Shown here: one piece after another, positions 15,009-64,000 of the stretch
Numbering within the stretch: position 1 is the stretch's first letter
How the letters are laid out: every line of letters starts with the position of its first letter
Assembly (NCBI GenBank): GCA_965200375.1
Contig: OZ241353.1
Coordinates: 1,153,797-1,217,796 of the forward strand
Length of the DNA stretch: 64,000 nt
Origin: Candidatus Azotimanducaceae bacterium
GTDB lineage: Bacteria > Pseudomonadota > Gammaproteobacteria > Pseudomonadales > Azotimanducaceae
Direction of reading: 5' to 3'
The notes under the pieces: generated by a model
The model's input: the letters and a program-made list of their open reading frames with translations, nothing else
Databases searched by the model: none
Told to the model about the DNA's origin: nothing
Made by a program: the position numbers and the translations under genes

Positions 15009-15029
15009 CGTTGAACCTCCGGCAGTTTT

Positions 15030-15770: not shown

Positions 15771-15984
15771 TCGTCTGTCTCCGTGCGTTCCCAAGTTCCA
15801 ATCCGGCCAGTGGCCGGGCCGTGCTTCACTCGAGAACGCACTATGTCCTTCCTGCCTATATGGGCCGTTGCTTGCGCGACCACGGACGGAGCGACCGCCA
15901 ACGGTCTCGCCAACCTTGTTCGATGCGCCCCGGCCCCAGCCGAAGGCTTGAATCCTCCGTCGCGAAACGCGGCTATCCAACCAC

Positions 15985-15998
15985 GGGGGGGGGGGGGG
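15985..15998. repeat. Homopolymeric G14 (C14 on the minus strand) tract
   Basis: Counted directly: ccac + 14 g + tcaaccc. It lies about 215 nt upstream of the minus-strand ATG at 15770. Confidence 0.9.
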
Positions 15999-16233
15999 TC
16001 AACCCTTGTGGCGAAGAAAATCGAACTTTCCGAACTTTCCTTCTGCAATCAATGGCTTGCAGGCGTCTTGCGCCCGGAGAGCGCCCTGGACGCTGCCGGC
16101 AGCCTGGACGCCTTCCGCCGGCGCCATTGGCAGCTGCGTCGTTGATCGCGCGGCGCTTTGCGCGGCCAAGACGCCCGGAACGCGCCCGGATCGCCTGTGG
16201 GCTTGGTTCGAGTTCCTGAACGCCCATTGGCCA

Positions 16234-25334: not shown

Positions 25335-25901
25335 TTTGACAGACACAGTAGAGTATCGCCAGCGTCGATGCCAGCCGCATGCAGTGTCTCCAGTCCCACT
25401 CGCAGCCAAGGGTGTGCGCCTTGGGTGCGAGTGGTTGGGAGCGTTGCCGGAAGGAGGTGTCGTCGGCGCTGTCGTCGGAGTGCCGGGAGCTGGCGTTGCG
25501 GCTGGCGGCCGGGATCAAAGGCGGCCGAGGAGGCACTGCGGCGGGCGTCGGCCGGTGGCCTGTGGGAAGTGCGACGAGGCGATGCGGCGCCGGTCAAGGC
25601 GAGATCGTTGACCGGGGTACGCGAAGGGAGTATTTGTGGGAAGCGGCAAGGTGCGCCACGGCCGTGGCACGGCACTGTGCGTCCAAGTGGTCGCTGCGGG
25701 TCTGCGGGGCGCTGGAGGCGGGCGGGCGTCGACGAACGTGCTGGCACCACACGGAGACCTGCGAGGAGGCCGGTCGGTGCATCGGCGGCATGAGGCTCAT
25801 GTTCCCCAAACGTCGCTCGCCCCGCAGCCGAAGTTCGCCGAAACGCCGCTCTAACTTGTGTGACAGACGCCTATCGAAGACTGCCCCTAGACCGGCCTTT
25901 G

Positions 25902-27191
25902 TCAACACCTAGGCGCAACGTAGCGTGGAACCACGTAGGGGCCCTCGGGTATGACCGCCACCGCCTTGTCGCCAGCGGCGGCCACGCTGCGGCGCACGGC
26001 GTCCGCCACGGATTCGATGCACTCGACTCCCGCCAAGGCGCGGTCCGCGGCATCCAGATCGCTCTTGAGCTGTATCCGCGCCGCCTGCTGCGCCTTGATC
26101 TGCATCTGGCTCTCCCACTCGTCGATGTCCGCGAGCGGCTTGCCGTGCAGAGATTCGAGGAAGCGCTCCGGGCCCTCGGCCGCCAACCGCTGCTGGCAGG
26201 CGCGATAGGCGTGTGACCCCAGCCCCTCGGCGCAGCCGGCCGCCAGCACCAGCGTGGCGTCTTCCGCCAGGATGTCCAATGGCGTCGCCATGCCCTTCAC
26301 CGCCTGGTAGTAGGTGCGGTCCAGCGGGTCGCCGGCGGCGGAAGTAACCACGGTAGCGAACCGGCGCGGCACCGGCACCGTGAGGTAGTCCTCGGCGAAG
26401 GCCACCGCTTCGAGGTGGCTGGCGACGATCTCCCCGAAGTTGACGAAGGACAGCCGCCGCCACTCGTCGATCACGGTGTTGACGGCGAAGGTCTCCCCCA
26501 GGAGCTTCAGGATCGCCAGCTGTTCTTCGTGCAGAGGATTGCCGGCCAGCCGGCAGGGCGCGACGTTCGGGTGCGCCATGAACTCGGCGTTGTGGAAGGT
26601 GCGGATCGTGTCCGCGTGGGCGATGCCCGGCGCCACTACCTTGCGCCCGCCGGAGTAGCCAGCCATGAAGTGCGGCTCCACTAGCCCGGTGACGATGCGC
26701 ACGTCCGCCTCCACGAACCGCCGGTCCAGCTTCGCCGGCACGCCCCGGCATGGCGTGGCCCCGAGGTCGACGTGGGCGTCGTCGTCCCGGGCATCGTGGT
26801 TGGCCACGCGCACATTGCCAAGCACCCAGGGATCGTCGATCAGCGCCGCCAGCTCCGCCCCTTCATTGGGCCGGTGCAGGCCGGTGGCCACCAGCAGCGT
26901 GACGTTGCCAGCGTCGATGCCAGCCGTAAGCAGCGTTTCCACCAGCGGCCGCAGCAGCAGACTGTTCGGCACCGGCCGAGTGACATCGCACACCAGGATG
27001 CATGCGCTGCGCTTGCCGGCCGCGACGGCCGCCAGCGGCGGCGACCCCACGGGGTGCTCCAAGGCGCCGCGGACCGCGGCGGCGGGGTTCGCGAGCACTG
27101 GCATCGGCGGCTTGGCGACGATGGTGACATCCAGATCGTCGCCGAACTCTACGGGCAGGCGGCCTCGACCGTATAGAAGCTCGACGATCAT
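25902..27191 (-). CDS. LarA-family (DUF2088) nickel-dependent racemase-like protein
   Basis: MIVELLYGRGRLPVEFGDDLDVTIV N-terminus and DUF2088-like body (LVATGLHRP, HFMAGYSGGRK). Start was chosen at the internal M, supported by the duplicated fragment at 28897. Confidence 0.75.
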   Translation of the reverse strand: MIVELLYGRGRLPVEFGDDLDVTIVAKPPMPVLANPAAAVRGALEHPVGSPPLAAVAAGKRSACILVCDVTRPVPNSLLLRPLVETLLTAGIDAGNVTLLVATGLHRPNEGAELAALIDDPWVLGNVRVANHDARDDDAHVDLGATPCRGVPAKLDRRFVEADVRIVTGLVEPHFMAGYSGGRKVVAPGIAHADTIRTFHNAEFMAHPNVAPCRLAGNPLHEEQLAILKLLGETFAVNTVIDEWRRLSFVNFGEIVASHLEAVAFAEDYLTVPVPRRFATVVTSAAGDPLDRTYYQAVKGMATPLDILAEDATLVLAAGCAEGLGSHAYRACQQRLAAEGPERFLESLHGKPLADIDEWESQMQIKAQQAARIQLKSDLDAADRALAGVECIESVADAVRRSVAAAGDKAVAVIPEGPYVVPRYVAPRC

Positions 27192-47365: not shown

Positions 47366-47845
47366 CTACTCCGGCAGCTTGTCGTCTTCCGGCCGGGCCC
47401 GCTCCGTGGGATCCGCGCCGTCTCGGGGGGCGCCGGTGCCCGAGGAGCCCATGAAAAACTTGCGTCCGTCGGGGAAGGTGATGTCGCGCCCGCTGCCGGA
47501 GCAGATGGGGGTGCAGTTGCGATCCTTGCTCTGGTAGCCGCGCACCACCACTTCCGTTCCCGGCAGCAGGAGCTTGCGCGTCATCCCCCGCCGCATCAGC
47601 GTGTTGGGCGTGCCGGCCTCCAGCTGCCAGACTTCCGTGCTGCCGTCTTCCTTCCGATGCACGACGTGGACCCAGGCGTGGGGGTTGATCCAGTCCACCT
47701 GGACGATCCGCCCCTGCAGGCGGATCGGCAGTTCCGCGTCGAACTCGGCGGAAAAGGCGTGGTGCGCCTGGCTCGGGGCGGCGGCTAGGACCATGCCCAG
47801 CGCCGCGACGGCCAGACGAGAGGGCGCCCGGATGCGAGTGTTCAT
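47366..47845 (-). CDS. DUF6152-like periplasmic protein
   Basis: Signal peptide followed by AHHAFSAEFD...GRIVQVDWINPHAWVHV. 159 aa. Confidence 0.55.
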   Translation of the reverse strand: MNTRIRAPSRLAVAALGMVLAAAPSQAHHAFSAEFDAELPIRLQGRIVQVDWINPHAWVHVVHRKEDGSTEVWQLEAGTPNTLMRRGMTRKLLLPGTEVVVRGYQSKDRNCTPICSGSGRDITFPDGRKFFMGSSGTGAPRDGADPTERARPEDDKLPE

Positions 47846-47968: not shown

Positions 47969-49192
47969 CTACAGCAACTGCGAGAGCAGCGTCCGCGCGG
48001 GGACCACGAGCGGCGGGCCGGGGCGGGCGAAGCAGTCGGCGTCCACGTAGTCCGCTTCCATCGTCGCCTGGAAGGCGAACGGCGCGTCCAGCGCGCGCTG
48101 GAAGTGGGCCAGTGCCGGGCTTGGCGAGACATCCGCGCGCTTCGCTTCCACCAGGAACCAAGGGCGACCGTCCCGCACGACGACGAAGTCCACCTCGCGC
48201 TTCTCCTTGTCGCGCAGATAGCCGAGCTCGAACGCGCCGAGCCCCAAGTCGTTCCAGCCATCGACCGCCTTGCGCAGATGGCAGGCGACGAAGGTCTCCG
48301 CGCGCTGGCCGACGTCCTGGACGGTCGCCCAATCTCCGAGATACCACTTGGGCTCCTTGCGCAGCGACCGAGCGACGTTGCGATGCCAGGGCCGAAGCAG
48401 GAATCCCACATGCAGGTCGCACAGCGTCGCCACCCATCGGCGGGCGGTGTCCACGGCCACCCGCGCCTGATTGGCCAGACGGCCGTACACCAGCTGTTGG
48501 CCGGACTGCGCGGCCAGCATGGCCGCCACCATTTCCAGCTGGCCAAGCTGCTGTACGTTGGTGAGGTCGCGCACATCCTCGCGCAGCAACTGCTCCTGGC
48601 GCAGCGAACGCCAGCGCCGGCTGAAGCGGGCGTCGCGGCGCAGGAACGGCTCCGGAAAGCCGCCGTGCAGCCACAACGCCGCCCAGTTCTCGGCGTCGAT
48701 TCGCCGCGGCTCGCCGACGATGCCGGCGGCGTCCGGCAGGCGCGGCGCAAGCGCTTCGGCGGTCGAGAAGGGGTGCATCCGGTAGCGGAAGTAGCGCCCC
48801 ATCAAGCTGTCGCCGCCGCGCCGGTAGACGTCCAGCCGACTGCTGCCGGTGAGGGCGATGCGCAGCTTGTCGCCGTGGGTGTCGAACAGGCCCTTGAGGA
48901 ACTGCTTCCAGCGCGGAAACTTGTGCAGCTCCTCGAACAGCACCAGTGGCGGCTTCTCCCGAAGCCGGTCGAGGCGAAGGGCGTCGACCAGCCGCGCCGG
49001 GCCGGCCAGCACCAGGTCGCGGCCGTCCAGGTCGTCCCAGTTGACGTAGGCGTCCGCCAGTTGGCGGCAGGTCGTAGTCTTGCCAACCTGGCGCGGCCCG
49101 CTTACGAAGGCCATCTGTCGGTTGCCGGCGTAGTGTTCGGCAAGCAGCGCGTGGTACAGGCGGGGCGTGGACGTGGCGACCATTATCTTCAT
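47969..49192 (-). CDS. AAA-family ATPase with DUF4143-like C-terminus
   Basis: FVSGPRQVGKTT Walker A, LVLFEELHKFPRWKQFLK, and C-terminal REVDFVVVRDGRPWFLVEAK. Start at internal ATG 49192 (MKIMVAT). Confidence 0.75.
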   Translation of the reverse strand: MKIMVATSTPRLYHALLAEHYAGNRQMAFVSGPRQVGKTTTCRQLADAYVNWDDLDGRDLVLAGPARLVDALRLDRLREKPPLVLFEELHKFPRWKQFLKGLFDTHGDKLRIALTGSSRLDVYRRGGDSLMGRYFRYRMHPFSTAEALAPRLPDAAGIVGEPRRIDAENWAALWLHGGFPEPFLRRDARFSRRWRSLRQEQLLREDVRDLTNVQQLGQLEMVAAMLAAQSGQQLVYGRLANQARVAVDTARRWVATLCDLHVGFLLRPWHRNVARSLRKEPKWYLGDWATVQDVGQRAETFVACHLRKAVDGWNDLGLGAFELGYLRDKEKREVDFVVVRDGRPWFLVEAKRADVSPSPALAHFQRALDAPFAFQATMEADYVDADCFARPGPPLVVPARTLLSQLL

Positions 49193-49316
49193 GGTCGCAG
49201 AATGGTCAAGACCAAAATACGATTCGCCGTCGCTTGGTCGAGTGCTTGGCGCCGCCGGGCGGCCGCGTAGGGCGGCAGTACAATGGGCCGCACTGACACC
49301 GTTGAGGGAGCGGGCC

Positions 49317-50417
49317 ATGCGCTTCATGCAATCGAAGGCTTGGGCGGCGCTGCCCGTGCTGGGGCTGGGCCTTGCTGCCTGCGGCCCCACCGCCGGCCCC
49401 GCCGACGATGGCGCTGGCGACGGCGCACCGGCGGCGCAGCCCGCCGCAAGCGGCGACTTCGCCACCGACACGCACAGTTTCGAGCAGGTCGCCGACGGCG
49501 TCTACTTCGCGCGCTACACGGTGCCGGCGTTCAACAGCAACTCGCTGGTGATCGTCGGCGACGAAGACGTCATCGTCGTCGATTCTCACATCACGCCGGC
49601 CACCGCCCGCGCGCTGCTCGCCTCCATCCGCACGGTCACGGACAATCCCGTGAGCGTGGTAGTGAATACTCACTTTCACTACGACCACGCGCACGGCAAC
49701 CAAGCGTTTCCCGGCGCCCGGATAATCGGCCACGCCTTCACCCGCCAGAAGACGGCGACGGCGCCGCTCGAAGAGAAGACGTTCCAGGACCACCTCGCCC
49801 GCACCACCGTCGGCGTCGAACGCTTGCAGGCGGCGCTGGAAGCCGCCGAGACGGAGGAGGACCGGCAGCAGGCCGAGAGCCGCCTCGCCTCCGCCAGGGC
49901 CCAGCTGGCGAACCTTGAGGAGGTGGCGCCGGTGCCGCCGAACATAACCCTCGACGAGCGCATCGTCCTCTACCGGGGCGAGCGGGAGATCCAGCTGCTG
50001 TTCTGCGGGCGCGCCCATACCGGCGGCGACGTGGTGGTCTTCCTGCCCGACGAACGACTGGTGTTCACCGGCGACATGATGCTCGGCGGCCCGTCCTGGC
50101 TTGGCGACGGCTACGTGGACGAGTGGCCGGCAACCTTGGAGAGGCTCAAGGCGTTGGAGTTCGACCTGGTGCTGCCCGGCCACGGTCCCAAGTTCGCGGA
50201 CCGGGCGCTGATCGACCACGTGCAGGACTTCTATCGGGCGCTGTGGACCCAAGTGGCGGATCTGCGGGGCCAGGGCAAGTCCGTGGGGGAAGCCGCCGCC
50301 GCGGTGGACCTGCGGAATTTCGAGGACCGGCTGCCGGGCCGGCGCCTGGGCTTCGACCCGCAGGCCGTGGCGCGCATCTACGAGCGGATGGCGGAGATCG
50401 AGTCCAGCAGCGCCTAG
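49317..50417 (+). CDS. MBL-fold metallo-hydrolase (exported)
   Basis: VVNTHFHYDHAHGN (HxHxDH motif), lipoprotein-like signal LGLGLAAC, GAGGGAG SD before ATG 49317, and TACAAT at 49279-49284. Confidence 0.8.
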   Translation: MRFMQSKAWAALPVLGLGLAACGPTAGPADDGAGDGAPAAQPAASGDFATDTHSFEQVADGVYFARYTVPAFNSNSLVIVGDEDVIVVDSHITPATARALLASIRTVTDNPVSVVVNTHFHYDHAHGNQAFPGARIIGHAFTRQKTATAPLEEKTFQDHLARTTVGVERLQAALEAAETEEDRQQAESRLASARAQLANLEEVAPVPPNITLDERIVLYRGEREIQLLFCGRAHTGGDVVVFLPDERLVFTGDMMLGGPSWLGDGYVDEWPATLERLKALEFDLVLPGHGPKFADRALIDHVQDFYRALWTQVADLRGQGKSVGEAAAAVDLRNFEDRLPGRRLGFDPQAVARIYERMAEIESSSA

Positions 50418-52757: not shown

Positions 52758-54362
52758 ATGACTTCGCAAGTGCTGATCTCCTGGGTTGCGGTGAATAACG
52801 ACCCCTTTGAAGAGAAGCGGCCGAATGTACCGGGGCCGACGCTGACCTTGCTGTTCGACAAGAACTCGCCGCACAAGGGCGACGTTGGCGACGTTGTGCT
52901 TCTGCATCGGCAAGCCGAGCCGGACAGCAAGGAGCAGCAAGCCGTCGCAAAGACGAAGCAGGAGATCGGGCGCAGAGAGAAGGACATCGGCTTGCACTGT
53001 GTTCCTTGGTGCGGCGACGATCCAACCGATCACCGGGCGATCTTCGAGTTTCTGCGCCGAGAACTGCCGCAGCTGAGGCGGCGTTTCGTCGGACGCGAAC
53101 TCGTCATCCACATCAGCCCTGGAACGCCTTCGATGCAGACGATCTGGGTGCTGATGGGCGAGACGGGCTTCATCGGGCCTCCCTTTGTCTTGGTCAAGTC
53201 CTATCGCAGCAAGGACAGACGCGGGCGACCACCGGTGGTGCCGGTGAAGCTCGACATCGAGACGTTCTACAAGGCGTACATATCGGCTCGGCCTCGCCGC
53301 GTGGCATCCGAGGAACAACGCGTTCTGTGGGATCCGACGCACTTCCGTACCGACCGGATGAAGCAGCTATTTGCCGAGGCGCGCCGTTTTGCGGCACTCA
53401 ATGTGCCGGTGCTGCTGCTGGGCGAGCGAGGCACGGGGAAGACGACGCTGGCCAGCTGGATCAGACTCCACAGCCCGTTCCGTCGTGAAGACCAAGACGC
53501 TAGCTGGCCAGCCGTCGCCTGCGGCCAATACAGCCCGGAGACCATGCGCTCCGAGCTGTTCGGCCACCGCAAGGGAGCGTTCACGGGCGCAACCCAAGAC
53601 AATGACGGTCTGATCCATGCCGCCGATGGCGACACGCTGTTCCTTGACGAAGTGGGCGATATCAGCCGCGACCTGCAGCGGCTGCTCATCAGGGCAGTCG
53701 AGGAGAAGGAATACGTCCCACTTGGCGCCATCAAGCCGCAGCGAAGCGACTTCCGTCTCTTGACGGCAACCAACATCAACGCAGACGAACTCCACGATCG
53801 GCTCGATCCGGACTTCCTTGACCGCATAAGTCTTCTCCAGCTGCGCTTGCCACCGCTGCGAGAGGTTCGAGAGGAGTTGCCTTGGCTCTGGCAAGAGACC
53901 TACCGAGAGGCCGCTCGTCGCTCGGGCGTCGTCGAATCCGTCGCGCAACTGAACGCGGACTGCGAGGCGCAGGTCGTCCCGGCGCTCATGGGCCATCCAC
54001 TCCCGGGCAACATGCGCGACTTGCTCAAAGTCGCCTACCGATTGCTCGCCGCGCTTGGCGATCCGCATGAGCCCTTGGCCGGACCCGAAGCCGTTCACTA
54101 CGCGCTCGCTGATTTGGACGACCAGTCGGCTAGCACGAGCAGCGTCTCCGCGGCTGTGGCGCGTGCCTTCGCCGACGCCCGAGACCTTGATGCGGCCTTC
54201 GACGGTTGCGGTGGGGCACTCCCCACCAAGACCGTGGAAGCCGATCTGAGACGGTTCATGGGTACTGAACTGCGCAGGATCGCCAGCGAAAGGGGCTTGT
54301 CCGATGACAATGTAGCCGACACGTCGGGCAGGACATTGCGGAACTGGGCGCTAAGGAGGTAA
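52758..54362 (+). CDS. RtcR-like sigma-54-dependent transcriptional activator (CARF-like N-domain + bEBP AAA+ + C-terminal HTH)
   Basis: N-terminal LVIHISPGTPSMQTIWVLM resembles E. coli RtcR YLIHITTGTHVAQICWFLL. Walker A LLLGERGTGKTT. GAFTGA loop in HRKGAFTGATQD. Walker B TLFLDEVGD. C-terminal ...DTSGRTLRNW is Fis-like. Confidence 0.75.
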   Translation: MTSQVLISWVAVNNDPFEEKRPNVPGPTLTLLFDKNSPHKGDVGDVVLLHRQAEPDSKEQQAVAKTKQEIGRREKDIGLHCVPWCGDDPTDHRAIFEFLRRELPQLRRRFVGRELVIHISPGTPSMQTIWVLMGETGFIGPPFVLVKSYRSKDRRGRPPVVPVKLDIETFYKAYISARPRRVASEEQRVLWDPTHFRTDRMKQLFAEARRFAALNVPVLLLGERGTGKTTLASWIRLHSPFRREDQDASWPAVACGQYSPETMRSELFGHRKGAFTGATQDNDGLIHAADGDTLFLDEVGDISRDLQRLLIRAVEEKEYVPLGAIKPQRSDFRLLTATNINADELHDRLDPDFLDRISLLQLRLPPLREVREELPWLWQETYREAARRSGVVESVAQLNADCEAQVVPALMGHPLPGNMRDLLKVAYRLLAALGDPHEPLAGPEAVHYALADLDDQSASTSSVSAAVARAFADARDLDAAFDGCGGALPTKTVEADLRRFMGTELRRIASERGLSDDNVADTSGRTLRNWALRR

Positions 54363-54500
54363 CTTCTTGCCGGCCGACGGAAGTATATTTCCGAGTGCCG
54401 TGGTGTCGTAGGGGTCGCTCTTGCGCTCTCGCGGCGATGTACACGAAAATACCTATTATAAACAATGTGTTATAAGAACACTGGGTGCGCGATCCGACGT

Positions 54501-54516
54501 TGGCACAGGATTTGCT
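54501..54516 (+). promoter_or_regulatory. Sigma-54 (-24/-12) promoter
   Basis: TGGCACAGGATTTGCT fits TGGCAC-N5-TTGCW, with GG and GC exactly 12 nt apart. It lies 139 nt after the bEBP stop and 36 nt before the ATG at 54552. GAGGA SD at 54539-54543. Confidence 0.65.
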
Positions 54517-54551
54517 CCATCCCACGCGAGCCACTTCCGAGGATCGCTCTG

Positions 54552-54896
54552 ATGGAACCGCAAACGTGCGACACGCACATACTGACGAACCATGCCTTAA
54601 TGCGCATGAGCGCAAGGTACATTCCCGCTGGTGCCGTCGAAGCAGCTTTGCTCCACGGCCGCACCTTTCATGTTCGTGGTGCCGAGATCCACGTCATAGG
54701 CCGCAAAGAGGTGCTGTGGCATAGGAAGAACGGCATTGACCTAGCCGACTACGAAGGCACGCAGGTCGTCTGCGACCCGGATGGCACGGTGGTCGTCACC
54801 GCGTACAAGAACCGCGACTTCCGCGGCTTGCGCCCGCACGGTCGCAGAATGGAGCGGGCCCGCCGCAGAAAACGCGCCGTCGGCGTAGGCAACTGA
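54552..54896 (+). CDS. DUF4258-like protein (BECR-fold RNase toxin-like)
   Basis: THILTNHALMRMSARYIPAGAVEAAL ... VVVTAYKN fits the DUF4258 pattern (HAxxRMxxRxI ... hhTVY). Basic C-terminal tail. Internal ATG of track ORF 54465..54896. Confidence 0.5.
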   Translation: MEPQTCDTHILTNHALMRMSARYIPAGAVEAALLHGRTFHVRGAEIHVIGRKEVLWHRKNGIDLADYEGTQVVCDPDGTVVVTAYKNRDFRGLRPHGRRMERARRRKRAVGVGN

Positions 54897-54911: not shown

Positions 54912-55574
54912 ATGGCCACACTCAAGGAGTTCACCGTCGCGTCCGCTCGTCCGCTGCCCGTCGTCCTCATGGCGGACGTGAGCGGAAGCATGGCCGCCGA
55001 CGGCAAGATCGCCGCGCTCAACTCGGCCGTTGCCGAGATGCAAGCGGCCTTCGCCGAGGAGGACGACGCCCAAGCGGAAATCCACATGGCCGTCGTAACC
55101 TTCGGCGGCACGGCAGCACTGCATCAGCCGCTGACCCCCGCTTCGCAAGTGCAGTGGACGAACATGGAAGCGAACGGCATGACGCCGATGGGCGCGGCGC
55201 TCGACATCGTCACGGACTTGATCGAAGACCGCGAGCGAGTGCCGAGCCGCGCCTACCGGCCCACGGTGGTACTCATCAGCGACGGCTTGCCGAACGACGA
55301 GTGGCAAGGGCCTCTCAAGCGCTTCCACGACTCCGAGCGTGCCGCCAAAGCGCAGCGTTTCGCCCTTGGCATCGGCGCCGACGCGGACCACGACGTGCTG
55401 CGTGCGTTCCTGGGCGACCCGGAAGGCCGCGTGTTCGAGGCGCACGAGGCGCGGGAAGTGCGCAAGTTCTTCCGCTGGGTGACGATGAGCGTCACCGCTC
55501 GTTCGCGCAGCGGCCAGCCCAACCAGGCGGTGGACGTGGATCCGCCGGACTTGGACGATTTCGGCGAGTTCTAG
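54912..55574 (+). CDS. vWA-domain protein (TerY-like)
   Basis: MIDAS motif LMADVSGSM, GMTPMGAAL, VVLISDGLPND. GAGGAG SD before the ATG. Confidence 0.8.
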   Translation: MATLKEFTVASARPLPVVLMADVSGSMAADGKIAALNSAVAEMQAAFAEEDDAQAEIHMAVVTFGGTAALHQPLTPASQVQWTNMEANGMTPMGAALDIVTDLIEDRERVPSRAYRPTVVLISDGLPNDEWQGPLKRFHDSERAAKAQRFALGIGADADHDVLRAFLGDPEGRVFEAHEAREVRKFFRWVTMSVTARSRSGQPNQAVDVDPPDLDDFGEF

Positions 55575-55595: not shown

Positions 55596-56312
55596 GTGAC
55601 CCAAACCGTTCAGATGTACGGCGCATCCGTTCGCGGCCCGCGCAACCGCCGCGACGGGCGAGCCAACCAAGATGCCTGGGTGAAGGCATCCGGCACGTTC
55701 GGGCATCTGATCGGCGTCTGCGATGGTGTAGGTTCCTGTCCCAACGCTCATGTGGGTGCCCGCACGGCTTGTCGCGCCTTGCGTCAGGCGGCGAGCCACT
55801 GGCCTGGCGGTTCCGCCTCCCCGAAACACCTCGTGCGCCTGGTCGAGATACTGTGGCGTCTCGGGCTCGAAGACCAGGACGCAACCGAGTGCGCCTGCAC
55901 CTGCATGTTTGCGTTGCGGTCGGCCGATGGCAGGCTGCTGCTGGCAGGCATCGGCGATGGCCTTGCTATGATTCGTGAGGAGGGCGAACTGGCAACTTTC
56001 GGCGGCAGGGGATCGGGCGTCTTCGGCAACGACACGTTGGCGTTGGGAGCGCCCCACAGGATCGACGATTGGTGGATCGCTGCCCGCGCACCGAGTAGCG
56101 GCAAGGCTGTCGTGCTTGCCACCGACGGCGTGGCGGACGACCTCGAAAACGACCGCAGAGGAGCATTCGTGGACTGGATGTGTGGGGAAGTCGGCGAGCT
56201 TGCTCCCGCCGCCCGCTGGCACCGCCTGCGTCGCGAACTGGGGCAGTGGCCCGTCCCCAATCATGTGGACGACAAGACGATTGCGGCGATGGTGGAGGTG
56301 GAGAGAGCATGA
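55596..56312 (+). CDS. PP2C-family protein phosphatase
   Basis: GASVRGPRNRRDGRANQDAW, IGVCDGVGS, VLATDGVADDL match PP2C metal-binding motifs. GTG start in the track; ATG alternative at 55614. Confidence 0.75.
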   Translation: MTQTVQMYGASVRGPRNRRDGRANQDAWVKASGTFGHLIGVCDGVGSCPNAHVGARTACRALRQAASHWPGGSASPKHLVRLVEILWRLGLEDQDATECACTCMFALRSADGRLLLAGIGDGLAMIREEGELATFGGRGSGVFGNDTLALGAPHRIDDWWIAARAPSSGKAVVLATDGVADDLENDRRGAFVDWMCGEVGELAPAARWHRLRRELGQWPVPNHVDDKTIAAMVEVERA

Positions 56313-57706
56313 CGCGCCCGCGGCACGTCACTTCGATTCACGGAATCCGCTACCGGCTAGGCAGCGAGCTGGGGCGAGGCGGTCAGGGCGCCGTCTTCGC
56401 AGTCGAGGGCGAGCGCTTGGCCGTCAAACTGCTCCACGGCCACTCCACGCACCTGCGGGAGCGTCTTCGCGACCAGCTGGCCATGGTGGCAAGACTGCCG
56501 CTTGAAGGACTGGCGGTAGCACGCCCACTAGATCAGCTGCGCCCACCGCATGTGGGCTACGTGATGGAGTTGTTCATCGGCATGGCACCGTTGCGTTCCT
56601 TGCTGCGACCGCCGAAGGGCGTTGACAGCGTGGCGCAGTGGTACATCGATGGCGGCGGCCTTGGTCGACGGTTGAGGTTGCTGGCGCACATTGCCCAAGC
56701 GATTTCGGCGCTGCATGGACGCGCACTGGTCTACACCGACCTGTCGCCGCACAACGTCTTCGTATCGGAGAGCACGAGCGACTGCGAGGTGCGGCTCATC
56801 GACGTCGACAATCTGCATGCGGCGACTGCGATTGGGCGAAGCGTGTACACGCCACGCTACGGGGCACCGGAAGTCGTGCGACAGGTTGGCTTGCCAAGCA
56901 CGCTGGCGGATGCGCACGCTTTCGCCGTGCTCGCCTTCGAGACGCTCGCCCTCGCGCACCCCCTGCTCGGCGACGACGTCCGAGACGGCGAACCGGCACT
57001 GGAGGAACGGGCGCTAGCCGGCGAGTTGCCATGGATCGACGCACAGGACAACGATGGCAACCGATCGAGCGACGGCATCCCGCGAGAGCTGGTGCTGTCG
57101 CCGGTTTTGCAGAACGACTTCCAGACCACTTTCGGGCGCGGTCTGTCGAATCCCGACGAGCGGCCGGGCATGGCTACTTGGGCTGAACACCTGCACAGGG
57201 CGGCGGACCGAACGATCATCTGTCCGTCTTGCGGAGGGAGCTACTTCGTCAACCGGGACGCCTGCCCTTGGTGTGACGCGGCGCGTCCCGACTGCATTGT
57301 GGCGAGGGCGACGCTTTGGGATCCTTGTCGCCGGCGCAGAACTGCAACTGGCGGTGTCGAGGCAGGCGCTGGTCTGGTCGCCAACGGCAATAGCAAGGAA
57401 CGAGTCTTGGACCAAGTCGTGATCTCGGAGCGCCGCCCGTTCAAGCTAACCGAGCGCATCACGCACGGCGCATCGGGCAACACGTCGATGCTGCGGGTCG
57501 AGTTCGCACGAGGACGCATCATCTTGGCGCGGGTCGGCGAAGTTCCCATGCGCCTCGTCTCCGAGAGCGGCAAGGGCGATCGCAACCTAGACCAGCCGGT
57601 GGATGTGCCCATTGCCAATCGCAGCGTGGACGGGCGCATCCATTTCGGGCTGAACGATCAGCTCCATCGCGTCATCCGCTTCGACTTGCACAAGGGCACC
57701 GCATGA
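56309..57706 (+). CDS. Ser/Thr protein kinase with zinc ribbon and uncharacterised C-terminal domain
   Basis: LGRGGQGAVFAV...LAVKLL (G-loop and VAIK-type Lys), YTDLSPHNVFV (HRD-like catalytic loop), LIDVDN (DFG-equivalent), YGAPEV. CPSCGG...CPWC ribbon. ATGA overlap with the PP2C stop. Confidence 0.8.
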   Translation: MTRPRHVTSIHGIRYRLGSELGRGGQGAVFAVEGERLAVKLLHGHSTHLRERLRDQLAMVARLPLEGLAVARPLDQLRPPHVGYVMELFIGMAPLRSLLRPPKGVDSVAQWYIDGGGLGRRLRLLAHIAQAISALHGRALVYTDLSPHNVFVSESTSDCEVRLIDVDNLHAATAIGRSVYTPRYGAPEVVRQVGLPSTLADAHAFAVLAFETLALAHPLLGDDVRDGEPALEERALAGELPWIDAQDNDGNRSSDGIPRELVLSPVLQNDFQTTFGRGLSNPDERPGMATWAEHLHRAADRTIICPSCGGSYFVNRDACPWCDAARPDCIVARATLWDPCRRRRTATGGVEAGAGLVANGNSKERVLDQVVISERRPFKLTERITHGASGNTSMLRVEFARGRIILARVGEVPMRLVSESGKGDRNLDQPVDVPIANRSVDGRIHFGLNDQLHRVIRFDLHKGTA

Positions 57707-60700
57707 ACGTCAGCGACGTGATCCATGGCCGCATCTCCAGCGCAGACCTGCGTCGTGCCAATGGTGAGCCGTTTCCGGCGAGCTTGCAAGCCAAGTCCGA
57801 GGTCGCTGTCGAACAATCGTCAAGTGGCGAGGCGGTGCTCATCATCGGGAGTGACCGGTGGGAAGTCGAAGGCGTTGGCAGCACCCACTCGAGCTTGTTG
57901 CGAGAGGTTGCACGGCGAGGGCTGCCGCGGCTCGCATGGCTCGCGCAAACGTCGCCGAAGCGCGGTCCGGCACAGAGCGTTCTCGTTCAGTTCCACGAGT
58001 TTTCTTTGTCCCTGAACATCCCGGAATCGATGGAGATCGGCGTCGATGACAGGACGGTGGACGACATGCGGCGGCGGCTTCGCCGCCAAATCTCCGTGCT
58101 AGACGCGGCCCGGTGGCTCGCCGAACACATGCTGCTGCCGCCCCGCAAGGAAGGCGGGCCAACCAGAGCGCTGCTGTCCGGCGCCCCCGTTGGCGAACGC
58201 ACCGCCTTTCGCCTCCACAGCAACGGTTTCGCCATCGATGTGCAACGCACCGACGACGACCGCCTCGTGATCAACCGGGTCGTCGAGTCGCGACGGCAGA
58301 TGGAAGGCAGCGACGCCCGTCCGATCTACTTGGTTGCCGCCAACATCCAGTTCCGCGACGCCAGCGCAGCAGGAGCGTTCCGCGGCGCAGCGCAGATCGA
58401 GCTCGATCAGATACTCGCTCAAGCGGACAGCTACCTTGGGTTCTGGCAGGCCTACAACAACAAGGAACGGCAGATCGTCCTGGACAAGGCGCGGCAGTTC
58501 GGTTGGACGAAATACGCGAAGCGCAGCCGCACTGAGGATGGTTCCTGGCGCTTCGACATCAGCGTGAACAAAGACCAGCTTGCAGACCTGTGGCCACGGC
58601 TGAAAGCGCTCGAGGATGAGCAAATCGAAGCGGGGGCGGAAGTGCCGCACGCAATTGAAGGTGCCGACGACACAGCCCTCGCCAGCGGCAATCGCCGTCC
58701 GTTCATCGGCGAACTGGCCCGACAAACCCAGAACCCGCCACAGATCTTCATTCGTCCCCAAGAGCGCCATGAAGACCGCGAGCCACCCAAAGAAGGCTAT
58801 CTCTTCGTCGCCCTTGGCGGCGACGAAGTGCGCGTCAAACGCCGCAAGGACGCTTGGGAGAAGGTCGTCAAGACCGAGAACCCGATGCCGCAGCTTGGCT
58901 TGCTTCTCGAAGGGCAGCCAGTGCCCGAAGCGCGGCGTCGCACGCTGCAACCAATGACCCGTGCGGTGCGCGACGTGTTCGACAGTCCCAGCGACCGACA
59001 GCGCAGTGCGCTCGACGTGGCTTTGAACACTCCGGACATCGCGCTGATTCAGGGGCCGCCCGGCACGGGCAAGACGCGCATCATCGCGGCGCTGCAGGCG
59101 CGTCTCGCCGAGCGGGACGAAGGTGTCAGCGAGAACGGCCTGGCCGGCAACACGCTGCTCACCAGCTACCAGCACGACGCGGTGGAGAACGCCGCCGCGG
59201 CAACCCGCGTGATGGGCCTGCCGGCCGTCAAGGTCGGCTATCGCGCCGGCACCGAGGAGGCCCGTGATGGCGTGGAAATCTGGGCGACCGAAGCTGCCGA
59301 AGCCGTTCGAGCCGCTCGCGCGTCCAATCCCGCCGAAGTCGGCGTCCACGCCGCGCTGGGCAAGGTTCGCGAGGTCGGCGTGGCATTCCTGCAGGCACCG
59401 GCGGAAAAAGAGACGCCAGCGGCCGTGCTCGCGCAAGTGTCAGAGCTTGCCAGCCCGTGGCTGCCGGGCAGGTTGGCGGATGAATTGATGCGCTTGCGAA
59501 CCGAAGTGTCTACCCCGCTCCGGCCCGCCTTGGGCGACGAGAACACAGCCCGTGCCATCAAAGCGGTCCGTGCTCTGCGCACGGAAGCCATCGAGTTCGA
59601 CGACGACGGCCCGCGGAACGCATTCCTGGCGTTACGGCGACTGCGCAGGCTCGAAGGATTCGCAATCGAAGAGGCCGAGGTCGAAGCGCTCGAACGCGCC
59701 GGGGAACCCGGTAGACCGCCAACCGAAGACCTGCTGATGGCATTGCGGGCTGCGAAGGACGCCCTCCTTGATCGTTTGCAGCCGCCCAAGGTCAACGCAG
59801 TCAACCCGCGGCACGCGGACGCCGATGCGATGATCGTCCGCGTCATCGACGATTTAACCGCCAGAGCGAAGGAATCCGCCCCCGGCGTCGACATCGCGGT
59901 GGACGACTGGCTTGCCACTCTGGAACAAGACCCGGACGGCACTCGCGACGCGGTTCGCCACTACTCAATGGTGCTCGCGGCAACCTGTCAACAGGCTGTG
60001 AGCCGCCCGATGGCCGCCGCCAAGCACGGCGAGGACACGGTCTTCCGCACCGTCATCGTGGACGAGGCGGCGCGTGCCAACCCGCTCGACTTGCTCATCC
60101 CCATGACGCTCGCCGAGCGACGGATCGTCCTCGTCGGCGACCACCGGCAACTGCCGCACCTGCTTGAGCCGGACATCGAACGCGAGCTGCAACAGTCCGC
60201 CGAGGATGCCGAGGACATACAGGAAGAGATGCGCTCCGCGCTGCGCCTCAGTTTGTTCGGGAAGCTGTTCACCGAGCTTCGCCAGCGCGAGAGGCGCGAC
60301 GGTGTTCAACGCACGGTCACGCTCAACCGCCAATACCGCATGCATCCGCGACTTGGGTTGTTCGTGAGCGCCCAGTTCTACGAACCGTACGGCGAAGGGT
60401 TCGAGTCTGGGCGCAGCGAGGAAGAGTTCGCGCACGAGGTCTCGATCGGCAAGGGCGGTTCGCAGGTCAGTCTTGCGGGGAAAGTGGCGGCATGGGTGGA
60501 CGTACCGGTTCGCCAAGGCGAGGAGGGTCGCGGACGGAGCGGACGGAGCAAACGGCGCGACGTGGAAGCAAGACGCATCGCCGATGAAGCGTACATGGTG
60601 ATCAATGCACACCCGGATCTCAGCGTAGGCGTCGTCACCTTCTACATGGCCCAGCGCGACGAAATACTCTCCTCGATGACTGAACAGGGACTGACGGAGC

Positions 60701-61059
60701 GCACTGCCGAAGGCGCCATCAGCGTCCGCGAAAAATGGCGGTTGACGGCCGATGGCCGCGAGCGGCTGCGCGTCGGAACCGTGGACTCGTTCCAAGGCAA
60801 GGAGTTCGACGTGGTGTTTCTCTCCTTGACCCGCTCGAACCGCGTCCAAGGCGACAACGAAGTGGCGCGGCGGCGGCGCTACGGCTTCCTGCTGCTCGAG
60901 AACCGCCTCTGCGTGGCAATGAGCCGACAGCAACGCTTGCTGGTGGTTGTAGGAGATGCAGCGATGGCTACAGGTGTCGAAGCCGAATCTGCCGTGCCGG
61001 CCTTGACCGCATTCTTGGAACTCTGCAAGGGGTCGCATGGGCATGTCCTTCGGGCCTGA
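57703..61059 (+). CDS. Superfamily 1 helicase, Upf1/DNA2-like (AAA_11/AAA_12-type) with ~440-aa unknown N-terminal region
   Basis: LIQGPPGTGKTR (motif I), VIVDEAARANP (II), VLVGDHRQLPH (III), LNRQYRMHP, TVDSFQGKEFDVVFLSL, VAMSRQQRLLVVVGD. ATGA overlap with the kinase stop. Confidence 0.85.
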   Translation: MNVSDVIHGRISSADLRRANGEPFPASLQAKSEVAVEQSSSGEAVLIIGSDRWEVEGVGSTHSSLLREVARRGLPRLAWLAQTSPKRGPAQSVLVQFHEFSLSLNIPESMEIGVDDRTVDDMRRRLRRQISVLDAARWLAEHMLLPPRKEGGPTRALLSGAPVGERTAFRLHSNGFAIDVQRTDDDRLVINRVVESRRQMEGSDARPIYLVAANIQFRDASAAGAFRGAAQIELDQILAQADSYLGFWQAYNNKERQIVLDKARQFGWTKYAKRSRTEDGSWRFDISVNKDQLADLWPRLKALEDEQIEAGAEVPHAIEGADDTALASGNRRPFIGELARQTQNPPQIFIRPQERHEDREPPKEGYLFVALGGDEVRVKRRKDAWEKVVKTENPMPQLGLLLEGQPVPEARRRTLQPMTRAVRDVFDSPSDRQRSALDVALNTPDIALIQGPPGTGKTRIIAALQARLAERDEGVSENGLAGNTLLTSYQHDAVENAAAATRVMGLPAVKVGYRAGTEEARDGVEIWATEAAEAVRAARASNPAEVGVHAALGKVREVGVAFLQAPAEKETPAAVLAQVSELASPWLPGRLADELMRLRTEVSTPLRPALGDENTARAIKAVRALRTEAIEFDDDGPRNAFLALRRLRRLEGFAIEEAEVEALERAGEPGRPPTEDLLMALRAAKDALLDRLQPPKVNAVNPRHADADAMIVRVIDDLTARAKESAPGVDIAVDDWLATLEQDPDGTRDAVRHYSMVLAATCQQAVSRPMAAAKHGEDTVFRTVIVDEAARANPLDLLIPMTLAERRIVLVGDHRQLPHLLEPDIERELQQSAEDAEDIQEEMRSALRLSLFGKLFTELRQRERRDGVQRTVTLNRQYRMHPRLGLFVSAQFYEPYGEGFESGRSEEEFAHEVSIGKGGSQVSLAGKVAAWVDVPVRQGEEGRGRSGRSKRRDVEARRIADEAYMVINAHPDLSVGVVTFYMAQRDEILSSMTEQGLTERTAEGAISVREKWRLTADGRERLRVGTVDSFQGKEFDVVFLSLTRSNRVQGDNEVARRRRYGFLLLENRLCVAMSRQQRLLVVVGDAAMATGVEAESAVPALTAFLELCKGSHGHVLRA

Positions 61060-62599
61060 AACGCCGCTGCTCCTGTACGGTCTCCGTCCCCACGCGGACC
61101 CAGGCGGACGCAACGATCGCGTGTGGCTGGGCTGGCCCGCATGGGCGTTCCGCGTCGTCGCACCGGAGTTCCGAAGCAGACGCTTGAACGCATTGCAGAA
61201 GGCAGTGCTGGGCGTCTTGCGGGCAAGCCGCCTCACCGAGGCCGCGCTCGGCAAGCGCCTGGGCATTCATCGCGAGCTGGCCGCCGTTGTGGTTGCGGAC
61301 TTGCAGGGGCAGCAGCGAGTCGACAAGGATTGGAAGGTCACGCGGGACGGCATCCGGCTCCTTGAAGCCGAGGCAGCTGAATCGGCCAAGTTGGTGCCCG
61401 CGTGGATGTTCCGCGATGCGTTGAGCGGAGACCTGTTGCCATTCGCCGCCCCCACTCTGGAACACGCCCGAACCGTACCGAACGAGGAAGGCTCTCCCGT
61501 GCTCGACCTTGGCTCGACCGGGAGCCCGTGGCAGCAGAGGCCGTGGACGCTGCGGGCACCACGAGACGCGTTTCCGGAGATGCCCGTGCCTGCCGAAATC
61601 CTCAAGGCGGCGCGGCAAAGCCAGCGATCTCACAGACTTTGGCAGCAGGTTGGCACGCACAAAGACGACGATCTCGATGAACCGAACGTCGAGACCGGTC
61701 AACTCGACCGTCTGACGAGCATCGAGGAAGAACCGCGGCCGGTCTATCTGGTGACGTTCCTCTACACCCCCAGAGGCGAAGAATCGGACGGCGATTGGCA
61801 CGTCTGCGAGTTCTTTGGGCGTGGTCATGATCCGTCGCTGCGACCGAGCGTCATCAAGGCTGCGAAGAGCGACCAGAATCTAGCCCGGCTACTGGACCGC
61901 CGACTCTTCACGTTTACGCGGCACGGCGATCTGGAAGGGTTCCAAACGGCCACCAAGGAGCGCGAACAGCGGGCACGCCGGCTGCTTGCACGCGTTCTCA
62001 CCATTGGCATCGAAAACTACAGCGCCGTCGCCACGCCACTACGGGAGACGCTCGACGCCTACTTGGAATGGCGCGACGTGGGAGACGTCGGGGCCGCTAG
62101 GCTTCGTCGCCATGTGCTGATGGAGTGTCGGCGGACGTTGGAGGCCCTGTTCACCGCCGTCGCCCGCTCCCATCCTATCGGAAGCGTAGCCGATCTGCTG
62201 TCGCACGAAGATCGGGCGCTCAACGAGACGACGCTGCGGGGCGCGGCGAAGGAACTGGGGTTGAGTTCGTTGCCCAATGCTCTTGGCCGCGTCTCCCGAG
62301 GGCAAGTCCGCGCGGTCAGCGACTACACCGATGGCTGGCGCCTGCGCCCACTGGTGGCGGCAATCCTGTTGCGGGCCCGTGGTGACGCCAAGCACCCCTT
62401 GGCGCTCGCCGCCAAAGACGCACCCAACATCCTTGAGCGTGTCGAACGGGTGGCAAAGCATGGTGGGAAAGCTGCGCACGAGGACCGCGGAGTGGATGGC
62501 GCACCTCTGGAACAGGTTGTCCAAGACACGCTAGACGTCTCGGGGCTGCTCCTTGGACTCCCCACACGAAAACTTGAGGAACTGACGACCGATGCCTAA
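61037..62599 (+). CDS. Hypothetical protein, possible N-terminal winged-helix domain
   Basis: 520-aa ORF overlapping the helicase 3' end by 23 nt. LQKAVLGVLRASRLTEAALGKRLGIHRELAAVVVADLQGQQRVDKDWKVTRDG looks like MarR/wHTH. The remainder is unassigned. Confidence 0.6.
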   Translation: MGMSFGPETPLLLYGLRPHADPGGRNDRVWLGWPAWAFRVVAPEFRSRRLNALQKAVLGVLRASRLTEAALGKRLGIHRELAAVVVADLQGQQRVDKDWKVTRDGIRLLEAEAAESAKLVPAWMFRDALSGDLLPFAAPTLEHARTVPNEEGSPVLDLGSTGSPWQQRPWTLRAPRDAFPEMPVPAEILKAARQSQRSHRLWQQVGTHKDDDLDEPNVETGQLDRLTSIEEEPRPVYLVTFLYTPRGEESDGDWHVCEFFGRGHDPSLRPSVIKAAKSDQNLARLLDRRLFTFTRHGDLEGFQTATKEREQRARRLLARVLTIGIENYSAVATPLRETLDAYLEWRDVGDVGAARLRRHVLMECRRTLEALFTAVARSHPIGSVADLLSHEDRALNETTLRGAAKELGLSSLPNALGRVSRGQVRAVSDYTDGWRLRPLVAAILLRARGDAKHPLALAAKDAPNILERVERVAKHGGKAAHEDRGVDGAPLEQVVQDTLDVSGLLLGLPTRKLEELTTDA

Positions 62600-64000
62600 G
62601 AGCCGCCAGCGTAAGAACAGAAGACAGCGCTCGCCACGTCCGCAGTCGCAGCCGATGGCACAACGTCCTGCCAAGCCAGCCCAATCTCCGACGGCAACGA
62701 AGGCGGAGGTCGAAAAGGCCCATGAAGAGGCCGTCGCCGGCGCGACGGAGTTCGAAATCGCAGCCCTCTCGATCGATCCGAGACCGCCAGAGCTGGACTT
62801 GGACGGCATGTGGAAGGTGGCGCAAGAGGCTCGCGACCTATTCCGCGCCGCGACGCGGCGGCACGAAGTGTTGTCGGAAGAGCTCCAAGCGCAACGAGAT
62901 GATTTCGGCCGGAAATCCCAAGAGCTCGACGAGCGCGCATCCAAGTTGGAGACCGACCGGAAGGACCTGGACGAACGAACCAGCCAGCTAGGCGATCGCG
63001 AGCTCCAGATCCGTGAGCGGGAAGCCGACGCCGAGCACGGCTTCGAGGACAAACGCATCGCGATGCTCGCACAGTACGACGACGTGATCGCCAAGCGACG
63101 CGAGACGTTGGACGAGCGCGAGAACGTACTCAACGAGCGAGAGAACGAACTGGAGCAGAAGGCGCGGCAAGTCGCCCGCCAAGAGCAACAGCTCCAATGG
63201 AGACAAGAGGACATCCAAGAGCAGGAACGCGATCTCGACAGTCGCGTTGAACGCCGGACTGCGGGCAAACAGGAAGAGTACCAGCACCATCTTGAGGCTG
63301 TTGAGGCCGAACGGGATCAAGCGCGAAGAGACCGAGATCAACACGCCGCCGCTTTGCGGGAACGTGAAGAAGCAGATCGCAGATTCGGGCAGCGCACGCC
63401 GGAACAAGTGCTTTCGGAACTCGACCGGCTGAATGTCGAGAACAAGGGACTGCAAGCACAGCTAGCTGCCCGCCCGAATATCGACGCCATTGAACGCCGC
63501 GCGGCTCTCGACCAAGAGCAGCAGTCGTGTCAGGCAGAACGCTTGGATCTGACGCGCCAAGTGTCCGAGTTGAAGCGTCGCCTTGCCCACGCCGACAGCG
63601 ATGCGGGCGAACGGGAAGTGCAGCGGGATCGAATCGCCGCACTGGACTCGCAACGGAAACTCCTGCACAGAGCCCACGAAGAACTGCGTGCCGAGGTGCA
63701 CGAGATCATCAGCCGCGGCGAGTCCCAATCGCGGTTCCCAGAGTGCATCGACATGGACGAAGACGACGAACTGCAACGCGCCGCACAGACCGCCAAGGGT
63801 TTCGGCAGCTTGGAAGAGTTCGCCCACGACGTCCGCCACCGGATCGCCCGAGATGGCCTCTACTACACCGAGGCGGACATCCGCAGCTTCATCGGCGGGT
63901 TGGCGATGGGCAGGCTGACTCTCCTGCAAGGCCTCAGCGGCACCGGCAAGACCAGCCTGCCGATCGCCTTCGCGAAGGCTGTGGGTACGAAAGCGTCGGT
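62592..64000 (+). CDS. Coiled-coil protein ending in a P-loop NTPase domain (McrB/AAA_5-like?), 3' end outside the window
   Basis: Not in the track because it has no stop. I translated it by hand from ATG 62592 (MPKSRQRKNRRQRSP...) and it is open to 64000. About 350 aa are E/R/Q/L-rich heptad-like sequence, then YYTEADIRSFIGGLAMGRLTLLQGLSGTGKTSLPIAFAKAVG (Walker A). Confidence 0.7.
   Translation, partial: MPKSRQRKNRRQRSPRPQSQPMAQRPAKPAQSPTATKAEVEKAHEEAVAGATEFEIAALSIDPRPPELDLDGMWKVAQEARDLFRAATRRHEVLSEELQAQRDDFGRKSQELDERASKLETDRKDLDERTSQLGDRELQIREREADAEHGFEDKRIAMLAQYDDVIAKRRETLDERENVLNERENELEQKARQVARQEQQLQWRQEDIQEQERDLDSRVERRTAGKQEEYQHHLEAVEAERDQARRDRDQHAAALREREEADRRFGQRTPEQVLSELDRLNVENKGLQAQLAARPNIDAIERRAALDQEQQSCQAERLDLTRQVSELKRRLAHADSDAGEREVQRDRIAALDSQRKLLHRAHEELRAEVHEIISRGESQSRFPECIDMDEDDELQRAAQTAKGFGSLEEFAHDVRHRIARDGLYYTEADIRSFIGGLAMGRLTLLQGLSGTGKTSLPIAFAKAVGTKAS

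Follow-up and report, generated by a model that had tools for sequence, protein, structure and literature searches.

RtcR of Escherichia coli and Salmonella is built of a CARF sensor domain, a sigma-54-interacting AAA+ domain and a helix-turn-helix (HTH) domain, and its target is the rtcBA operon. Its AAA+ domain is kept repressed by the CARF domain of the same protein, and binding of 5' tRNA halves that terminate in a 2',3'-cyclic phosphate to the latter leads to oligomerisation (PMC7790460, PMC9650030). In vitro, E. coli RtcR is not activated by tRNA fragments alone; RtcA and RtcB, both of which bind the CARF domain, are also required, and cyclic oligoadenylates bind weakly without activating (PMC9650030). 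RtcR-like CARF-AAA-HTH proteins “not linked to Rtc system” were noted by Makarova et al. [quoted passage not shown] RtcR homologues heading Type II CoCoNuT superoperons have likewise been described, and a model of RNA-fragment sensing proposed for them (Bell, Sahakyan, Makarova, Wolf, Koonin 2024 eLife, hereafter Bell et al., 2024; PMC11090510). The present analysis concerns the gene of such a protein (hereafter the regulator) in a 64,000-nt stretch of contig OZ241353.1 (the window; positions count from its first letter). With good confidence, the regulator can be read as an RtcR-like CARF enhancer-binding protein that is uncoupled from rtcBA, heads a Type II CoCoNuT and would serve it as a damage-gated sigma-54 switch.

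The regulator shares the tripartite architecture of RtcR. Its open reading frame (ORF) begins with ATG and encodes 534 aa, which the PADLOC profile PDLC01994 (“RtcR_PspF1--CARF_AAA_HTH”) matches end to end at 512 bits and E=4.5e-154, with residues 2-531 aligned to positions 2-465 of the 468 in the profile. Scores are lower for the sister models RtcR_PspF2 (245 bits) and RtcR (155 bits); among the PADLOC RtcR_PspF1/2 models it is RtcR_PspF1 that fits over the full length. Pfam Sigma54_activat covers residues 198-362 (E=7e-40), the Protein Data Bank (PDB) matches of the AAA+ domain are NifA, NtrC, FleQ and PspF, and both Walker motifs as well as the GAFTGA loop, which occurs in no other ORF of the window, are intact (Table 1). 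The regulator is thus confirmed as a bona fide RtcR-like CARF enhancer-binding protein with an intact sigma-54 AAA+ module; an earlier note, made from the letters of the window, had claimed this layout and these motifs, and both stand. At the C-terminus, helices are predicted by AlphaFold2 (AF2) at residues 490-511 and 524-532, with a pLDDT (predicted local distance difference test) score of ~86-93, and fall inside the PADLOC CARF_AAA_HTH profile. An HTH-like domain is suggested here by these modelled helices and by the palindromes that adjoin the gene.

Likeness to RtcR does not amount to identity with it. The regulator is 28-32% identical to E. coli RtcR and reaches 200 bits on the NCBIfam RtcR equivalog NF038308, against a cut-off of 650; on these sequence measures it is not an RtcR orthologue. 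The absence of rtcA and rtcB, asserted in the earlier note, is borne out over a wider sample. With E. coli RtcA and RtcB as tblastn queries, the best match in the window has E=0.3, and none of the 23 related loci gives a match at E<=1e-3. Whereas RtcR acts on rtcBA, the regulator's apparent target is a different operon, and the co-activators RtcA and RtcB are missing. The combination of regulator architecture, rtcBA absence and downstream gene set is far beyond chance.

The N-terminal domain is a CARF domain by fold. Pfam matches to the first 195 aa are weak (RtcR E=0.041, below the family cut-off; Csm6_CARF E=0.033), and since E-values of ~0.03-0.04 are insufficient for a CARF call, structure prediction and profile comparison were needed. 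An AF2 model of residues 1-195, computed from an alignment of 83 sequences, has a mean pLDDT of 86.9 and an alternating beta/alpha topology. In a Foldseek search of the PDB, all 19 matches at E<=0.001 are CARF-domain proteins. The best is Csm6 (6tug, E=5.8e-7, TMq 0.65), and Cam1, Csm6', Cdn1, Sis0811 and SSO1393 are also found; Csx1, Can2, Card1 and Cad1 follow slightly above the cut-off. An hhalign comparison of the regulator family with E. coli RtcR is unbroken from CARF residue 26 to AAA+ residue 430 (probability 99.9%, E=6.6e-32), where it ends short of the C-terminal helices; the CARF domains alone align at 84% probability and E=7e-6. The CARF/Rossmann-like fold anticipated in the earlier note, including its likeness to RtcR and Csx1, is therefore recovered.

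The conservation of pocket residues, which the earlier note had proposed to check, points the same way. Across the 83 sequences, the invariant CARF residues lie past beta1 (W9, A11, D15, P16), past beta3 (W84, D88, P89, T90) and past beta4 (H118, S120, P121, G122, T123, M126, T128), and the beta4 motif HISPGTPSMQTIW corresponds to HITTGTHVAQICW in RtcR. As these residues sit at the strand ends that form canonical CARF pockets, they fit a pocket for a small ligand or an RNA end. The Rossmann-like CARF fold is common to the regulator and the type III CRISPR effectors (Csm6, Csx1, Cam1, Can2, ring nucleases), and in each case an output domain is gated by the sensor domain. The output is a nuclease or a pore in the CRISPR effectors and a transcription ATPase in the regulator, and sequence identity between the two is 12-18%.

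The best support for the regulator acting on the operon promoter comes from the non-coding DNA between them, since its elements are conserved across phyla, which makes them the strongest available evidence. The intergenic region (54363-54551) separates the regulator stop codon from the operon and looks like an enhancer-dependent promoter with putative activator sites. Two candidate palindromes are followed by an IHF-like site (AAACAATGTGTTA, one mismatch from WATCAANNNNTTR) and, ~117 bp downstream of the second palindrome, by a predicted sigma-54 promoter, for which the transcription start is predicted at ~54526. This promoter is the only exact match to TGGCAC-N5-TTGC in the 64-kb window. In an alignment (A1) of 11 intergenic regions (the window and 10 further loci), every sequence has TGGCA at -24 and the G of the -12 element, and the -12 C is kept in at least 90% of the sequences. 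Furthermore, the consensus CGGAAnAAnnnTTCCG-n-GACGGAAGATTnATTCCGAA is kept directly after the stop codon, and TTTCAATAnGTTA between it and the promoter. Paired palindromes lie 21-22 bp apart, i.e., two helical turns, in six loci (L003-L007 and L011), and the window pair is spaced by 21 bp. A strict TGGCA-N6/7-TGC pattern misses most of the related promoters, in which the -12 element, by reading and alignment, is often TCGC or TxGC. The design of sigma-54 promoter, IHF site and upstream activator sites is that of the RtcR promoter (PMC9650030). The conserved cis-element architecture is the new part of the present analysis, as the promoter and activator sites are undescribed in the CoCoNuT paper (PMC11090510).

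The regulator family is widespread and the gene order around it is well kept. More than 120 full-length homologues were found at >=57% identity. With the CARF domain alone as query, 232 cluster representatives match at E<=0.001; among those listed, the full-length proteins measure ~500-590 aa, the size of CARF-AAA-HTH proteins. A scan of species-representative genomes gave 21 loci with close homologues (~47-66% identity) and two distant AAA+-only matches. The close homologues come from Myxococcota, Latescibacterota, Deferrisomatales, a Competibacter plasmid, Desulfobulbus, Nitrospiraceae, Spirochaetia, Rhodothermales and others. Ten of the loci (L001-L007, L009, L011, L014), which span Myxococcota, Latescibacterota, Deferrisomatales, Competibacter, Desulfobulbus and Nitrospiraceae, keep the order regulator, DUF4258, vWA, (PP2C), kinase, CnuH, CnuE, CnuB up to the point where the contig ends or similarity is no longer detectable; the L009 contig ends past PP2C, and in L014 only DUF4258 and vWA were detected. 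CoCoNuT genes lie within 10 kb of the regulator in 12 of the 16 loci with enough flank, and in L008 and L015 the operon is within 10 kb of the regulator homologue in another orientation.

In the window, the vWA, PP2C, Ser/Thr kinase and superfamily 1 (SF1) helicase genes follow the regulator on the same strand, preceded by a short DUF4258 gene and closely spaced or overlapping. The kinase/phosphatase/helicase operon that the earlier note took for the apparent target is therefore in place. Its identity was missed there: the “defence-like module”, judged from gene content, is a predicted anti-phage system, a Type II CoCoNuT that includes a TerY-P triad. Type II CoCoNuTs comprise a TerY-P triad with a kinase-zinc ribbon, which is frequent but not core, together with CnuH, CnuE, CnuB and the McrC-like CnuC; CnuH carries an RNase-toxin-like domain, and BrnT-like toxins lie upstream of RtcR-associated CoCoNuTs (PMC11090510). 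The operon has the triad with the zinc ribbon, CnuH, and a CnuB with a coiled-coil and an McrB-like GTPase, while CnuC would lie past position 64000.

The closest described arrangements are those of Bell et al. (2024), in which a CARF-ATPase-HTH regulator, a BrnT-like RelE-family gene, the TerY-P triad, CnuH, CnuE and CnuB stand on one strand, as they do here. Unlike the published superoperons, the window regulator abuts the CoCoNuT without intervening R-M, Druantia or Shield genes; the window host is a high-GC bacterium, not Pseudomonas, and the window CnuE lacks the HEPN Arg of the published layout (PMC11090510). Association with a CoCoNuT also sets the regulator apart from the R-M links stressed by Makarova et al. 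(2014; PMC4012209). In the TerY-P defence system (Gao et al., 2020; Anantharaman et al., 2012, as cited in PMC11090510), the order of a vWA protein with MIDAS motif, a PP2C and a Ser/Thr kinase is as here. The kinase of the stand-alone, experimentally validated TerY-P system, as far as that citation describes it, ends in an OB-fold and the window kinase in a zinc ribbon, and the window triad sits inside a larger operon.

The gating ligand and the activation of the operon promoter are our inference by analogy with RtcR. Dimers of the regulator would bind the palindromes through the C-terminal domain, and the CARF domain would keep the AAA+ domain inactive. A damage signal on the CARF domain may then allow the ATPase to hexamerise; the hexamer would contact sigma-54 through GAFTGA, assisted by IHF-dependent looping, and ATP hydrolysis would open the sigma-54 closed complex at the operon promoter. 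The most likely signal would be RNA fragments whose termini bear a 2',3'-cyclic phosphate, for example tRNA halves arising from phage attack or toxin RNases. The predicted metal-independent RNases of the operon (DUF4258, possibly CnuE, and the toxin-like domain that has been described for CnuH) might generate more cyclic-phosphate ends and thereby positive feedback, as has been suggested by Bell et al. (PMC11090510).

Several observations weigh against this reading. RtcA and RtcB, the co-activators that E. coli RtcR needs, are absent here, which weakens it. Between the CARF domains of the regulator and of E. coli RtcR, identity is only ~25%, and therefore the regulator's ligand could differ from RtcR's. 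Pfam HTH models give no match at the regulator C-terminus, activator site 1 is degenerate at the window locus, and rpoN was not found in the 64-kb window, so that sigma-54 is assumed to be encoded elsewhere in the host genome. The feedback through CnuE is weakened as well, because the window CnuE lacks the canonical HEPN Arg: Gly stands in place of the RxxxxH Arg five residues before H481 (“GGKAAH”). This Arg is absent also in the closest relatives (L001, L002, L003, L011, L015), while RxxxxH is kept in L004, L005, L007 and L008, and no HEPN domain was matched in CnuE by sequence in Pfam or the PDB. As the Arg is missing, the HEPN RNase of the window CnuE clade may be altered or inactive.

Of the other explanations, the one that survives best holds that control of the CARF domain lies mainly with protein partners from the operon or with phosphorylation (TerY-P kinase/phosphatase, CnuH, DUF4258), the regulator being part of a feedback circuit and not a free ligand sensor. 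The dependence of RtcR on the CARF-binding proteins RtcA and RtcB (PMC9650030) speaks for it, as does the co-conservation of the kinase/phosphatase pair with the regulator. Nevertheless, in L008, L010 and L012 a member of the regulator family stands before cargo of an unrelated kind, and PP2C is missing in L002 and L007; because such loci exist, a partner-specific mechanism is not universal. The invariant residues at the CARF strand ends, moreover, fit a small ligand or an RNA end. As the principal mode of control, partner gating is hence unlikely, although it is plausible as an extra layer.

Gating of the CARF domain by a cyclic oligonucleotide (of the cA3, cA4 or cA6 type) from another source in the cell, in the manner of type III CRISPR or cyclic oligonucleotide-based anti-phage signalling systems (CBASS), would leave the promoter logic unchanged. 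The best structural matches of the domain are indeed CARFs that bind cA6 or cA4 (Csm6 6tug, Cam1 8t66). Nevertheless, none of the seven annotated operon products is a cyclase or resembles Cas10 in Pfam and PADLOC scans, and no such synteny partner appeared in the related loci, which were searched for homologues of the window's own proteins alone. The regulator motif ISPGTPSMQT also lacks the K/R that typically follows beta4 in nucleotide-binding CARFs, a feature it has in common with the RtcR family (PMC4012209), and the weak, non-activating binding of cyclic oligoadenylates by E. coli RtcR (PMC9650030) argues in the same direction. This explanation is improbable, and damage-gated control by RNA ends is preferred.

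A different question is whether the downstream genes constitute Mokosh type I (MkoA and MkoB) and not a CoCoNuT. In PADLOC the helicase matches MkoA (E=1.6e-85), the kinase matches the part of MkoA that is a kinase, and the 520-aa protein matches MkoB with its N-terminus (E=4.7e-5); the helicase-kinase MkoA is clearly related to the SF1/UPF1-like helicase of the window, with a kinase present in both systems. However, the window kinase is a separate, unfused gene with a zinc ribbon, and only residues 29-149 of the 520-aa protein, a winged HTH (wHTH) of ~120 aa, resemble the N-terminus of MkoB. In Mokosh type I, MkoB is a phospholipase D (PLD) nuclease, whereas Pfam shows the N-terminal wHTH alone, with no PLD domain, in 10 homologues of the 520-aa protein. 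The extra genes are also those of the published Type II CoCoNuT layout, with vWA and PP2C genes preceding and a coiled-coil McrB-like GTPase following. A Mokosh system is very improbable on these grounds, and the PADLOC assignment was rejected for want of a PLD domain and for its different gene set. The same genes are found on an island of Pseudomonas aeruginosa CF040, where they are listed as RtcR, vWA, phosphatase, kinase, “Mokosh (no nuclease)” and “Type IV RM (no nuclease)” (PMC12191111). With the label “Mokosh (no nuclease)”, defence-finder tools systematically mis-annotate CoCoNuT genes, a point of use to annotators, as PADLOC- and DefenseFinder-style tools name CoCoNuT genes in this way.

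That the regulator and the Type II CoCoNuT are mere neighbours, with the true target elsewhere, is hardly credible: no sigma-54 promoter was seen directly downstream of the regulator homologue in L013, L015 and L017, but gene order and promoter elements are conserved across phyla, and the activator sites abut the regulator stop codon and face the operon.

Table 1. Predicted features of the regulator locus and its surroundings (window positions)
Feature	Position	Strand	Basis or remark
DUF6152 protein	47366-47845	-	upstream of regulator
AAA_14/DUF4143 ATPase	47969-49471	-	few kb upstream of regulator
Metallo-beta-lactamase-fold protein	49167-50417	+	few kb upstream of regulator
RtcR-like CARF / sigma-54 AAA+ / C-terminal helical (HTH-like) enhancer-binding protein, 534 aa, PADLOC family RtcR_PspF1 (the regulator)	52758..54362	+	ORF, Pfam, PADLOC, hhalign
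CARF domain, residues 1-177, Rossmann-like beta/alpha fold	52758..53288	+	AF2, Foldseek, invariant columns, hhalign to E. coli RtcR CARF
ISPGTPSM, residues 119-126	53112-53135	+	motif search
Sigma-54 interaction AAA+ domain and lid, residues ~198-433	53349..54056	+	Pfam, AF2, motifs, PDB matches
Walker A GERGTGKT, residues 222-229	53421-53444	+	motif search
GAFTGA, residues 273-278	53574-53591	+	motif search
Walker B LFLDEVG, residues 294-300	53637-53657	+	motif search
C-terminal helical region, residues ~478-534	54189..54359	+	AF2 helices, PADLOC CARF_AAA_HTH profile coverage
Putative upstream activator site 1, AGGTA-N6-TGCCG, 3 mismatches, overlaps regulator stop codon	54357..54372	+	21 bp upstream of site 2; paired sites in related loci
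Putative upstream activator site 2, exact palindrome CGGAA-GTATAT-TTCCG	54378..54393	+	alignment A1
IHF-like site, AT-rich patch between activator sites and promoter	54460..54472	+	CA...TT core columns kept in A1
Predicted sigma-54 promoter TGGCAC-AGGAT-TTGC; -24 GG 54502-03, -12 GC 54514-15	54501..54515	+	exact consensus match, alignment
DUF4258 protein, 114 aa, RelE/BrnT-like, operon gene 1	54552..54896	+	Pfam DUF4258 E=3.8e-5, 24.3 bits vs cut-off 25; position kept in 10 loci
TerY-like vWA protein, MIDAS motif DVSGS...T...D	54912..55574	+	Pfam VWA, PADLOC, translation
PP2C-type Ser/Thr phosphatase	55596..56312	+	Pfam PP2C_2 E=4e-29
Ser/Thr kinase, C-terminal zinc ribbon CPSCGG...CPWC; start overlaps PP2C stop	56309..57706	+	Pfam Pkinase, PADLOC, translation
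CnuH, UPF1-like SF1 helicase, 1118 aa; PADLOC label MkoA	57703..61059	+	Pfam AAA_11/AAA_12; PADLOC MkoA E=1.6e-85
CnuE-like protein, 520 aa, N-terminal wHTH	61037..62599	+	PADLOC, alignment, Pfam of homologues
CnuB, partial: ~440 aa coiled-coil, then Walker A GLSGTGKT of McrB-like GTPase; runs off window end	62592..64000	+	sequence, homologues in loci

Some features of the operon genes deserve mention beside the table. The DUF4258 gene has its ATG at 54552, and 9 nt before it stands a GAGGA ribosome-binding site; translation probably does not begin at 54465, the mechanical ORF start, which lies upstream of the sigma-54 promoter. No antitoxin-sized ORF adjoins this gene, and the gap to the vWA gene is 15 bp. 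The best PDB matches of CnuH are UPF1, NAM7 and SMUBP-2. In the CnuE-like protein, C-terminal His residues are invariant (H453-P454 and H481), and H453-P454 is kept in all homologues compared. The L015 homologue of CnuB carries an AAA_5 (McrB-type) domain at residues 497-651, after the coiled-coil. PP2C is missing between vWA and kinase in L002, L007 and L008, with a vWA-kinase spacing of 36 bp in L002; given its loss from the triad in these loci, the phosphatase seems dispensable.

Upstream, the neighbour of the regulator is a divergently oriented GT4 glycosyltransferase. The GC content falls from ~0.70-0.73 to ~0.64-0.65 at ~52 kb, where the regulator starts, and stays low up to the window end, as would fit an island gained by horizontal transfer. 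The ~52 kb boundary showed neither a tRNA nor an integrase, and tRNA and Rfam scans of the 64-kb window were empty. Low-GC patches (~0.60) also occur at 14000-16000 and 24000-26000, the rest of the window being at 0.68-0.71; among the ORFs of these patches, Pfam recognised a radical-SAM protein (24361-25197) only. A sigma-70 scan gave no convincing promoter for the regulator gene. The locus sequence occurs in sequencing runs of marine and sponge metagenomes and of samples whose organism names are coded.

A distinct arrangement of the family occurs in two metagenome-assembled genomes (MAGs), L008:11958-19464 (Myxococcota) and L010:11952-17549 (Gammaproteobacteria). In both, the DNA after the regulator gene carries variant palindromes (CGGCn-N6-nGCCG) and then a TGGCAC promoter, past which lie a small ORF and then a 1661-1680-aa protein with Pkinase, AAA_16 (STAND), TPR, GAF and Sigma54_activat domains; in L008 an AAA_15/AAA_21 ATPase comes after the giant protein. 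Such an arrangement could constitute a cascade from one enhancer-binding protein to another.

Taken against the published record, the central idea of the earlier note is correct but already published, the pairing of regulator and CoCoNuT being known from comparative genomics. Judged from its genes and intergenic elements, the window locus is a clean, compact further example of an RtcR-like regulator heading a Type II CoCoNuT. CoCoNuTs and their RtcR-like regulators are so far computational predictions, and a search of the literature found no experimental work on either. With the regulator directly against its operon and a readable enhancer, IHF-like site and sigma-54 promoter between them, the locus is a convenient test case, which could show whether a CARF domain couples RNA-damage signals to immune-system transcription and what switches a CoCoNuT on. 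The cargo seen so far comprises CoCoNuTs and, in the two MAGs, the giant kinase-STAND-GAF second enhancer-binding protein. A broader proposal, tentative and possible rather than probable, is that the RtcR_PspF1 family may be a portable “RNA-damage alarm”, in which a cis-module of fixed composition (a pair of CGGAA-N6-TTCCG sites, one IHF site and the sigma-54 promoter) would travel with the regulator and render any cargo infection-inducible. If true, anti-phage immunity would be transcriptionally induced, in a sigma-54-dependent manner, by self-generated RNA ends, and a defined pair of promoter and ligand would make CoCoNuT function experimentally tractable.

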